Shown here piece after piece: positions 52,427-55,326 of a stretch of 64,000 nucleotides of DNA. Each line of letters starts with the position of its first letter. Within the stretch, counting starts at the first letter, position 1. The notes beneath the pieces were generated by a model. The model was not told where the DNA came from. It made no database searches and saw only the letters and a program-made list of their open reading frames with translations. Source of the stretch: Escherichia coli. GTDB taxonomy: Bacteria > Pseudomonadota > Gammaproteobacteria > Enterobacterales > Enterobacteriaceae. The translations under genes and the position numbers were made by a program. The stretch is from NCBI RefSeq assembly GCF_003334815.1, contig NZ_QOWO01000012.1; one strand, 5' to 3'.

Positions 52427-53058
52427 AACGACGTGACACCATCGTGCGCTACACCGCGCCGGAACGTATCAACCACTGGATCACCGCCTTCTGCTTCATC
52501 CTGGCGGCGGTGAGCGGGCTGGGCTTTTTGTTCCCGTCCTTCAACTGGTTGATGCAAATCATGGGCACACCGCAGCTGGCGCGAATTCTGCACCCGTTTG
52601 TCGGCGTGGTTATGTTTGCCTCGTTCATCATCATGTTTTTCCGTTACTGGCATCACAACCTAATCAATCGGGATGATATCTTTTGGGCGAAGAATATTCG
52701 TAAGATCGTCGTCAACGAGGAAGTAGGTGACACCGGGCGTTATAACTTCGGTCAGAAATGCGTTTTCTGGGCGGCGATTATTTTCCTGGTTCTGCTGCTG
52801 GTGAGCGGCGTGATTATCTGGCGTCCTTATTTTGCGCCTGCTTTCTCAATCCCGGTGATCCGATTCGCGTTAATGCTGCATTCATTTGCCGCAGTGGCGT
52901 TAATTGTGGTTATCATGGTGCATATCTACGCCGCCCTTTGGGTGAAAGGCACGATTACCGCCATGGTGGAAGGATGGGTTACCAGCGCCTGGGCGAAGAA
53001 ACATCACCCGCGCTGGTACCGTGAGGTCCGCAAGACAACGGAAAAGAAAGCTGAATGA
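52423..53058 (+). CDS. fdoI: Formate dehydrogenase-O cytochrome b556 subunit
   Basis: 211 aa [38 protein letters not shown]. Confidence 0.95.
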
Positions 53059-53984: not shown

Positions 53985-54149
53985 TCTCTGACGTTTTCCG
54001 GGTGGCGCAGGTCGCCCGGATTACAGCTCATAGGGTGTGACGACACCATCTCTCGTATTCCGCGTTACCACCTCAAGCTATGCCGCCAGTGCCGGTTTGG
54101 CCTCAATTTACCCACCACCACATCAATAAGGTTATGGGCATGAGACTGA

Positions 54150-54292
54150 TGACAAGCGTAAGATTGCCTGATGCGCTGCGCTTATCAGGCCTACCAATAA
54201 ACTGCAATACATTGAATTTATACGACTTTGTAGGCCGGATAAGGCGTTCACGCCGCATCCGGCATGAACAACGCGCACGTTGTCAGCAATCT
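54150..54292. repeat. REP/BIME element(s)
   Basis: gcctgatgcgctgcgcttatcaggcctac ... gtaggccggataaggcgttcacgccgcatccggca. Confidence 0.85.
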
Positions 54293-54313: not shown

Positions 54314-54532
54314 TTACCATTCCTCGCGCAGCTTACGCTGATATTCGACACCATCTTCCTCACACCCTTGCCAGATGCCAGGAACACTGGTTCTTGCTGT
54401 TTGCGATTGATTTATCAGGTATTGATCTACCGCTTCCCTTAATAGGTCCGCACGAGGAAGATTACGCTGCACCTCGAGATCATCAAGTTGCTTAATCACC
54501 TCATTCGATAAATCGAGTAAAATTCTGCCCAT
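54314..54532 (-). CDS. yiiF: CopG/RHH-family small DNA-binding protein YiiF
   Basis: ORF track 80 aa; likely start [39 protein letters not shown] (72 aa); RHH-like pattern. Confidence 0.8.
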
Positions 54533-54773
54533 ATCTATACCTGCCAGAGAGTTCATAAATATCTCGCCAATATCATTTTTGAATCTATGGAGAGAAAAGT
54601 ACCCTTGCCGAATCTTTAAAGAAAGCTCATTTACGCATCATTTTTTATTTTTGCGAGGCGTTTTCCAGATATGATGTAACAGTTGCAGTTATTATAAGTT
54701 CAAGTAAAACAGCCTTGTATTAATACCAGAATAAGGGCATCTGTTTTTTATATTCAAGAATGAAAAATTTTTG

Positions 54774-54992
54774 TCATTCCTTATGCTCCTTACACTGATC
54801 ATCAACACCAACTACCTCCCCCTTTTGCCTGCCTCCCTTTGCTTTACGCACCGGGAATTGCTGACGTTCCAGATATTGCTCTACCGCTTCGCGTAAAATT
54901 GCAGATCGTGAAACCTTACGCCAGCCCCGAAGCTTGTTCAGCCGTTTAATTGCCTCTTCTGATAAATGAAGAAAAACCGTATTCATCGCCAT
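54774..54992 (-). CDS. yiiE: CopG/RHH-family small DNA-binding protein YiiE (paralog of YiiF)
   Basis: ORF track 81 aa; likely start MAMNTVFLHLSEEAIKRLNKLRGWRKVSRSAILREAVEQYL (72 aa); shares LREAV[DE]QYL with YiiF. Confidence 0.8.
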   Translation of the reverse strand: MAMNTVFLHLSEEAIKRLNKLRGWRKVSRSAILREAVEQYLERQQFPVRKAKGGRQKGEVVGVDDQCKEHKE

Positions 54993-55326
54993 TACCAATA
55001 CCTTACATATATTACTCATTAATGTATGTGCGAAAATTACGCCGGAAAATCATTTAAAAAAAGCGGATTTTTGCATGTTGTTTTGTTTTTGCGAGGCGTT
55101 TTCCAGAAATAATAAGAGTGTTGCAGTTGTTTCATTTATTACTCAAAAATGGTTTAGTTATCGCCCAGGATGAATTATGGGTGCTATGAATATATTATAT
55201 TCAGAGATATTTATTTGCATAATCTGAATGGTGTAGCCGAAAAACGTCAGCATCCTAACAGCACCAGGATTTAAGGTGAAATTAATCTTTCATCACAGAC
55301 CGGTCAGTACTGCCACCAACCGGTCT

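Follow-up and report, generated by a model that had tools for sequence, protein, structure and literature searches.

Why do two adjacent and little-studied genes of Escherichia coli each carry a copy of the same upstream block? The question concerns yiiF and yiiE, which lie side by side in a 64-kb stretch of a K-12-type E. coli chromosome segment (hereafter "the window," i.e., the whole 64,000 nucleotides analyzed) and which the searchable literature names only as uncharacterized regulators ("CopG family regulators"). An earlier note on this DNA had described them as a tandemly duplicated pair of ribbon-helix-helix (RHH) protein genes that kept a common, perhaps autoregulatory, control element. 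Our analysis indicates that the block is probably a CRP-S promoter, i.e., one activated by CRP together with Sxy, and that it serves the remnants of a vapBC toxin-antitoxin module, namely, the vapB gene yiiF and its duplicate yiiE. The features at issue are the following.

54314..54556, minus strand: yiiF, 80 amino acids (aa) (current RefSeq annotation and list of open reading frames [ORFs])
54774..54992, minus strand: yiiE, 72 aa, RHH paralogue of yiiF
54594..54693, minus strand: conserved block of yiiF, with CRP-S site and predicted weak promoter
55032..55131, minus strand: conserved block of yiiE, with CRP-S site and predicted weak promoter
54649..54670, plus strand: predicted CRP-S site of yiiF, 22 bp, TTTTGCGAGGCGTTTTCCAGAT, with TGCGA at 54652-54656 and TTCCA at 54663-54667
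55087..55108, plus strand: predicted CRP-S site of yiiE, 22 bp, TTTTGCGAGGCGTTTTCCAGAA, with TGCGA at 55090-55094 and TTCCA at 55101-55105

The upstream regions of the two genes form a gapless direct repeat of 100 nucleotides (nt) (54594-54693 versus 55032-55131) with 73% identity and a period of 438 bp, which stops approximately 35 nt short of each start codon. The conserved element is present at both places where the earlier note had located it, and it is longer than had been noticed. Within the repeat, the 22-mer TTTTTGCGAGGCGTTTTCCAGA occurs exactly twice in the window (54648-54669 and 55086-55107; none expected in shuffled sequences). This core ends 92 to 94 nt before the two start codons, in agreement with the distance of about 90 bp given previously.

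On the plus strand, the core reads TTT-TGCGA-GGCGTT-TTCCA-G. Both copies contain TTTTGCGAGGCGTTTTCCAG, an exact instance of TGCGA-N6-TTCCA (2 matches in the window versus 0.2 expected), and the CRP-S motif of E. coli is T4G5C6G7A8-N6-T15T16C17C18A19 (Sondberg et al. 2019, PMC6728893, quoting Sinha et al. 2009). CRP-S sites are asymmetric, work in either orientation, need both of their unlike halves, and occupy class-I-like positions (Sondberg et al. 2019, PMC6728893). Half sites of this kind in Enterobacteriaceae never have T6, those without C6 have G6, and C6 alone cuts CRP affinity about 80-fold (Cameron and Redfield 2006). In the core, TGCGA is the strong half and TTCCA the weak one, and the latter obeys this rule, reading TGGAA (i.e., T4G5G6A7A8) on the opposite strand. 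The site in the sxy promoter, which was validated by reporter experiments (Sondberg et al. 2019, PMC6728893), reads TCGGAAAGAGCCTCGCAAA in an E. coli record and is identical to the core CTGGAAAGCGCCTCGCAAA at 16 of 19 positions, including 5 of the 6 spacer bases.

The CRP half-site spacing and the T-rich flank would also suit an ordinary, Sxy-independent CRP site or a decayed, nonfunctional one. We consider this unlikely. Both halves depart from TGTGA in the manner that defines CRP-S sites, with C6 in one and TTCCA in the other, and strict conservation across seven genera argues against decay. This conservation emerged from an alignment of eight upstream regions, those of E. coli yiiF and yiiE and of the vapB genes of Klebsiella, Citrobacter, Salmonella, Pseudocitrobacter, Enterobacter, and Superficieibacter. 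Only three items are conserved in the alignment, i.e., the CRP-S site, a TAnnTT hexamer, and a palindrome over the ribosome-binding site. The CRP-S site varies only at one spacer base (C/G), one base of the weak half (A/G), one base of the T-rich flank by TGCGA, and the base past TTCCA. It lies 93 to 99 nt before the start codon in the yiiF/vapB loci, and TAnnTT is fixed at 58.5 nt from its center. With this hexamer as the predicted -10 element and the -35 hexamers assigned on the assumption of a 17-nt spacer, the remaining parts of the control regions are as follows.

54596..54601 (-10, TACTTT) and 54619..54624 (-35, TTTCTT), minus strand: predicted yiiF promoter, predicted start at about 54589
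55034..55039 (-10, TAATTT) and 55057..55062 (-35, TTTTTT), minus strand: predicted yiiE promoter, predicted start at about 55027
54557..54579, minus strand: degenerate palindrome of yiiF, which is ATGATATACTGGAGGTATAT over the Shine-Dalgarno sequence in intact vapB genes and ATGATATTGGCGAGATATTT in yiiF

The center of the site would thus lie at about -70.5 from the predicted start of both yiiE and yiiF, a class-I-like position. On this anatomy, a complex of cAMP-CRP and Sxy (TfoX) would bind the 22-bp asymmetric sequence TTTTGCGA-GGCGTT-TTCCA. When Sxy is present and cAMP is high, CRP-Sxy would occupy the otherwise low-affinity site and, from its class-I-type position, bring in RNA polymerase to turn on the two genes independently; the promoters of both genes would be nearly silent in the absence of Sxy, a C6 site being a poor CRP target. 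We infer the binding, the Sxy-dependent activation, and the transcription starts at yiiE and yiiF from the sequence.

Several points weigh against the CRP-S promoter. The center at about -70.5 agrees with class I phasing (-61.5, -71.5, and so on) only to about 1 base. A sigma-70 consensus scan of the block came back empty, the -35 hexamers assigned above are very poor, and the promoter is predicted from conservation alone; a poor -35 element and an empty scan are, however, what would be expected of an activator-dependent promoter. Unrelated loci agree in the spacer, GGCG[C/T]T, more closely than the published consensus demands, a likeness to be read with the qualification that the genome scan described below used the core and so fixed the spacer by design. 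Alike spacers could reflect the shared ancestry of a portable promoter module and not selection for binding alone. Finally, an upstream comparison did not recognize the site pattern upstream of hicA, a gene of a known CRP-S-controlled operon.

Other promoter types were considered for the core itself. A sigma-70 promoter spanning it was rejected on the basis of the scan and of inspection, as no hexamer pair fits in either direction. A sigma-54 promoter has more to recommend it at first sight, since in gene sense the core, CTGGAAAACGCCTCGCA, has GG and GC at the -24/-12 spacing. All variants, even the divergent yiiE copy TTGGATGCCGTCTCGCA, preserve this GG-N10-GC spacing, and the element is asymmetric and often lies in sense orientation some 90 nt ahead of start codons. 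Of the conserved bases, the C and A of TGGCAC and the T of TTGC are missing from the core, so that only the GG/GC spacing fits the definition of such promoters by TGGCAC-N5-TTGC and occupancy in vivo, and it is also found antisense next to sigma-70-type promoters. Genome-wide sigma-54 chromatin immunoprecipitation sequencing of K-12 detects a nearby site within fdoI, yet has no site at yiiE, yiiF, or the coaBC promoter (another locus with the core), and genomic SELEX (systematic evolution of ligands by exponential enrichment) with RpoN lists nothing at these positions. On these K-12 tables we rejected a sigma-54 promoter as extremely improbable. The intragenic fdoI site (IS47, CTGGCGCGAATTCTGCA; Bonocora et al. 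2015) is found exactly at positions 52576-52592 and anchors the window to K-12 coordinates.

What would such promoters express? YiiF is 100% identical to a solved Shigella protein (PDB 2K5J) and matches the VapB antitoxin of Klebsiella pneumoniae (7BY2/7BY3 chain A) over its full length (E = 1.7e-27); chain B of these structures is "Ribonuclease VapC," the product of the gene next to Klebsiella vapB. The protein keeps both the N-terminal RHH domain and the C-terminal VapC-binding tail (WQ.CEEDG.EYQR.LR.EW, aligned to 7BY2 chain A). Its homologues carry Pfam RHH_1, and NCBIfam yielded no family above the cutoff for YiiE or YiiF. The earlier note had given both proteins about 72 aa. This length is correct for YiiE, whereas YiiF has 80 aa in RefSeq and 80 residues in the 2K5J chain, and its longer start is homologous to the start of intact vapB genes. 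The motif LREAV[DE]QYL, described there as a common C-terminal helix, is indeed shared, but it is helix 2 of the RHH domain, midway along the protein, and not a C-terminal helix. YiiF has the RHH domain and the toxin-binding C terminus of a VapB protein, without an adjoining intact PIN-domain vapC gene. Since the window contains only relics of vapC, YiiF appears to be an orphan VapB-type antitoxin and no part of a working module.

The missing partner is intact in relatives. In K. pneumoniae, vapB-vapC is located between fabY plus an alpha/beta-hydrolase gene and fdhE, the same place as that of yiiF, and the same module occupies the fabY-fdhE position in five further genera (Citrobacter, Salmonella enterica subsp. 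diarizonae, Pseudocitrobacter, Enterobacter sp. kpr-6, and Superficieibacter). At this locus, vapC encodes a PIN-domain protein, and its start overlaps the stop of vapB. Remoter YiiF homologues on Burkholderia and Rhizobium plasmids also have vapC after them. Gene order and homology point to a vapBC module ancestral to the fabY-fdhE locus of Enterobacteriaceae. The suggestion of a degenerate antitoxin-like remnant, with a lost toxin partner to be sought in other Enterobacteriaceae, was thus right for YiiF, as its orthologues are VapB proteins followed by a PIN-domain VapC, and remains of vapC lie downstream of yiiF in the window.

54021..54109, minus strand: vapC relics, located by tblastn with K. 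pneumoniae and C. freundii VapC
54078..54107, minus strand: vapC relic IEAKPALAA followed by a stop, VapC residues ~21-29
54021..54077, minus strand: vapC relic LEVVTRNTRDGVVTPYEL followed by a stop, VapC residues 102-124 (tblastn E = 2.7e-5)
54130..54290: cluster of repetitive extragenic palindromic sequences/bacterial interspersed mosaic elements (REP/BIME) inserted in the decayed vapC, with the relic start codon on one side and the other relic pieces on the other

A third vapC remnant in the window is a start codon that overlaps the yiiF stop. Other E. coli strains keep an N-terminal VapC piece, LFDIDIVIDLFSVKIEAKQALAA followed by a stop (tblastn E = 6e-7), in addition to a C-terminal piece. 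The REP/BIME stretch, which gives sub-threshold Rfam matches to REP-derived naRNA4 and ES036, is missing from another E. coli allele (the L003 type). In the favored explanation, the toxin gene was destroyed by an internal deletion, with an additional REP/BIME insertion in K-12. A candidate "fourth degenerate core copy" next to fdhE was rejected; it is the C-terminal coding relic of vapC.

YiiE is related to YiiF in only one part. The two proteins are 41% identical over 56 residues (residues 1-56, the RHH domain; E = 3e-12), and their C-terminal thirds are unrelated. The basic C-terminal tail of YiiE has no relationship to the VapC-binding region, its matches in PDB span the RHH part only, and the window sequence and ORF list show neither a toxin ORF nor a toxin relic between yiiE and the yiiF block. 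YiiE thus lacks the combination of RHH domain, toxin-binding tail, and adjacent toxin gene that marks a VapB antitoxin, and it is best described, from its sequence, as a VapB-derived paralogue that is probably not functionally VapB, its toxin-binding tail having been lost or replaced. In the homologue search, YiiE homologues were found in Escherichia and Shigella only. The 100-nt block is private to the yiiE/yiiF locus within E. coli, with a median of two places per genome. Adjacent paralogues on the same strand, collinear upstream similarity, and a single vapB at this position in other genera together have the form of a tandem duplication. The collinearity and the restriction of YiiE to Escherichia/Shigella support the view that the control region and vapB were duplicated in tandem within Escherichia, so that yiiE would be a copy of CRP-S site, promoter, and vapB. 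The earlier proposal that a gene was duplicated along with its control region is borne out by this pairwise comparison of the two loci. The orphan proteins might now act as repressors at the palindrome over the ribosome-binding site or as decoy antitoxins against incoming VapC toxins.

The yiiE copy of the site differs in other E. coli lineages, where it reads TGCGA-GACGGC-ATCCA. Comparison of the L003-type sequence (L003 3955-3976) with window positions 55086-55107 indicates that the yiiE upstream region is a mosaic between lineages. In the K-12 type, the core is identical to the yiiF copy and the 13 nt just upstream are divergent; in the L003 type, the situation is reversed. This pattern looks like short-patch gene conversion between paralogous control regions.

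RHH antitoxins normally autoregulate, and no part of the two upstream regions, or of the vapB upstream regions as a whole, is better conserved than the core, so that an operator bound by YiiE and/or YiiF, repressing their own promoters, has to be weighed against a CRP-S site. Several features of the core speak against an operator. It has no direct or inverted sub-repeats of the kind that RHH dimers bind, and it lies about 60 nt upstream of the -10 element instead of overlapping the promoter. The palindrome ATGATATAC-TGGAGG-GTATAT (ATGATATAC-N6-GTATAT), separately conserved over the ribosome-binding site and degenerate in yiiF and yiiE, may be a better VapB operator candidate. In addition, operons whose antitoxins are unrelated (RelB, CcdA, and helix-turn-helix [HTH]-type HigA/NadS) have the same 19-mer before them, and it is found before sxy (16 of 19 positions), yicR/coaBC, a phosphotransferase system (PTS) operon, and modules with isrK and C4 RNAs, none of which involves an antitoxin.

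The extent of this recurrence was seen in an exact scan for CTGGAAARCGCCTCGCAAA in one genome per bacterial species, which returned 58 stretches, approximately 45 of them in Enterobacteriaceae, representing at least 14 locus types with unrelated flanks. Unlike the 100-nt block, the 19- to 22-nt core is thus not private to the yiiE/yiiF locus. The other positions of the core include the following.

yicR(radC)/coaBC intergenic region (Escherichia)
relBE cassette in the nrdG-cybC interval
downstream of yjbB, ccdAB and an operon of the higBA type
higBA types by infA-clpA and within a decayed rhuM gene
SymE/RhuM island near selC
PTS operon
several modules with isrK and C4 RNAs and a 150-aa ORF

Ahead of yiiF/vapB, higBA, and ccdAB, the core is in sense orientation, and ahead of relBE and the isrK/C4 promoters, it is antisense. 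Its occurrence at 14 or more unrelated locus types and in either orientation marks it as a regulon motif and not an RHH autoregulatory operator, which we regard as very unlikely. The earlier note had found the block consistent with autoregulation and had named recurrence at many unrelated loci as a reason to abandon that idea. The core does recur in this way, before unrelated antitoxin families and in both orientations; it matches the CRP-S consensus exactly, and it is a transcription factor site of a regulon and not a junk repeat.

Features of some of these loci merit description. At the yicR/coaBC position, Klebsiella and Enterobacter carry a more palindromic TGCGA-N6-ACGCA where Escherichia has TGCGA-N6-TTCCA, and the center of the site is about 62.5 nt upstream of the coaBC start implied by a conserved extended -10 element, TGaTAAAAT. 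The gene radC belongs to the competence gene set (Cameron and Redfield 2006). For the isrK-type promoters, the center of the site is estimated at about -59.5. In Enterobacter, Leclercia, Lelliottia, and their relatives, the core lies beside an isrK-like and/or C4 RNA (RF01394, RF01695), followed by a 150-aa ORF with no match in NCBIfam (L043 1832-2040, L052 1655-1743, L021 5250-5333, L049 1783-1867, and L053 7359-7444); in two of these locus types, it is 16 nt upstream of the promoter -35 element. This arrangement suggests that P1-immI-like or prophage-derived immunity modules may also be under CRP-Sxy control. A known RNA family as the identity of the core itself was rejected; the Rfam matches in the window are sub-threshold and REP derived only, and C4 and isrK RNAs elsewhere are its neighbors. 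The SymE/RhuM locus of Enterobacter (L008 2228-3151 and L036 400-490) is a selC-associated island and adjoins an ORF for a retron-type reverse transcriptase. In one of these stretches (L008), a higBA cassette with a second core copy interrupts rhuM at a core-resembling sequence. The relBE cassette (E. coli E69), with its own CRP-S site, is present in 394 of 5,426 E. coli genomes, in which it replaces a 46-nt nrdG-cybC spacer and terminator hairpin, and it has no flanking direct repeats.

Such cassettes raise the question of whether the core is an attachment (att)-like recombination or insertion site for toxin-antitoxin cassettes, its regulatory look being secondary. At one locus, alternative cassettes (ccdAB versus higBA) start right after the core; the infA-clpA locus of Enterobacter has the core alone or with higBA after it; a RelE-like/NadS cassette in Pseudocitrobacter and E. 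coli lies between two copies with only about 19 nt in common; and in a yiiF-less E. coli allele, the deletion ends at the core edge. The nrdG-cybC locus tells a different story. There, the core is inside the relBE cassette, by its promoter, and the empty allele (that of most E. coli, including a K-12 derivative) has no core. Because of this internal position and the absence of the core from the empty site, an att-like site was dropped as the main explanation. The yiiF-less allele reflects a microhomology deletion that reaches into the coding relic of vapC and not a precise excision. No recombinase is associated with the core copies, and copies are also found in core-genome promoters (sxy and yicR/coaBC). 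Every boundary pattern is equally well explained if each operon carries its own CRP-S promoter, of which only the site stays conserved. An att-like site is thus unlikely, to about the same degree as an ordinary or decayed CRP site.

The absence of the core from real plasmids and its near absence from phage contigs also argue against an att-like site. In the plasmid collection, the core was detected only in mislabeled chromosomes and on no real plasmid, and a plasmid origin was accordingly rejected. Several PLSDB records, such as NZ_OL790696.1, CP125156.1, and NZ_CP151862.1, are whole or partial chromosomes labeled as plasmids, which supplied chromosomal sequence for this analysis but would mislead plasmid statistics. 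A phage origin was rejected as well, as nearly all of the 105 matches in viral contigs are coding coincidences in one unrelated family of phage proteins. A literature search for the core sequence string returned nothing relevant.

The surroundings of yiiF and yiiE in the window, a K-12-type segment, are as follows.

Plus strand: fdoHI-fdhE
Minus strand: yiiF, yiiE, yiiD/fabY, and dtd
55140..55844: AT-rich gap upstream of yiiE, 31-35% G+C, K-12-type allele
55369..55485, minus strand: pseudogene fragment in the AT-rich gap (RefSeq annotation)

The G+C content is 31-43% across 54350-55850 versus 52-59% in the flanks. The K-12-type allele of the locus is present in 1,986 of 5,426 complete E. coli genomes. 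At the position of the AT-rich gap, other E. coli strains have a 92-aa ORF, a RelE/HigB-like toxin gene with a NadS-type antitoxin gene, and an alpha/beta-hydrolase gene, and the RelE/HigB-like toxin/NadS-type operon of this longer allele is preceded by a third core copy. Some E. coli alleles lack yiiF, and others have two unrelated genes between yiiF and yiiE. In E. coli E14 (L001 3714-5327), these are a DUF6708 gene and a hypothetical gene, both on the plus strand, between the yiiF control region and yiiE; in this strain, the yiiE upstream region showed no CRP-S-like copy when up to 5 mismatches were allowed. IS1 or IS621 insertions are found inside the fdhE-yiiF-yiiE interval in some E. coli strains. 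The yiiF/yiiE stretch is therefore a polymorphic accessory hot spot. In other genera, the fabY-fdhE locus also houses ParDE and HigB-HTH modules, and it is a toxin-antitoxin hot spot conserved across genera.

The closest known systems place the predicted CRP-S promoters of yiiE and yiiF in context. The CRP-S promoters of E. coli sxy, ppdD, and yrfD/hofM share with them the asymmetric 22-bp TGCGA-N6-TTCCA site and orientation independence, and they have the class-I-like position and the weak core promoter that are predicted for yiiE and yiiF. Those promoters serve DNA-uptake genes, whereas yiiF and yiiE are an orphan antitoxin gene and its paralogue, with two identical sites 438 bp apart and a predicted promoter each. 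Toxin-antitoxin genes under CRP-S control have precedents in hicAB (promoter P1) and Haemophilus influenzae toxTA, and chpSB, higBA, and hokD are Sxy induced. The E. coli hicAB and H. influenzae toxTA loci are type II toxin-antitoxin loci with both a CRP-S promoter and an antitoxin-repressed promoter, and their separate antitoxin operator nearer the gene parallels the palindrome over the vapB ribosome-binding site. They belong to another family, whereas the yiiF locus is of the VapBC type, with the antitoxin gene first and the toxin gone in E. coli. The K. pneumoniae VapBC module (7BY2/7BY3) and the other fabY-fdhE vapBC modules are the nearest relatives, YiiF being the positional orthologue of their VapB with the same CRP-S site; E. 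coli differs from them in having vapC relics only and the extra paralogue yiiE.

The decay of ccdO157 in E. coli is an example of a decaying chromosomal toxin-antitoxin locus. As at such loci, the toxin has been lost and the antitoxin kept at yiiF, and the locus is polymorphic within the species and lies between core genes. In contrast to these loci, yiiF keeps a perfectly conserved, predicted activator site, which suggests that its regulated expression may still be under selection.

CRP-S sites, VapBC modules, orphan antitoxins, and Sxy-induced toxin-antitoxin genes are all of kinds already known. A microarray study of Sxy by Sinha and coworkers in 2009 reportedly listed 34 CRP-S transcription units. 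It is quite possible that yiiE and yiiF, with their two consensus sites, are among them, in which case the regulatory part of the present finding would be a confirmation and not a discovery. The two genes nevertheless gain a concrete, testable identity and a regulatory input.

The wider pattern may be new, i.e., the same near-consensus CRP-S site with a constant GC-rich spacer before unrelated cassettes. The modules seen with the core comprise VapBC, RelBE, CcdAB, at least three HigBA/RelE-HTH types, the SymE/RhuM island, and the P1-immI-like isrK/C4 RNA modules. We tentatively raise the possibility, which we hold to be more doubtful than not, that small mobile chromosomal modules across Enterobacteriaceae recurrently carry a near-perfect CRP-S site as a built-in module at the 5' end. 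If so, the constant GC-rich spacer (GGCGCT) would be part of what Sxy recognizes, and identical 19- to 22-bp sites could provide portable homology for cassette swaps at hot spots like fabY-fdhE, although we assign a low probability to such sites also serving as short homology for cassette exchange. Sxy would then control, as a master switch, a large and horizontally shuffled collection of toxin-antitoxin and immunity genes, beyond those for DNA uptake. The link between the Sxy regulon and toxin-antitoxin systems may be much broader than the few published cases, and it bears on the open question of what purpose the "competence" regulon of E. coli serves.

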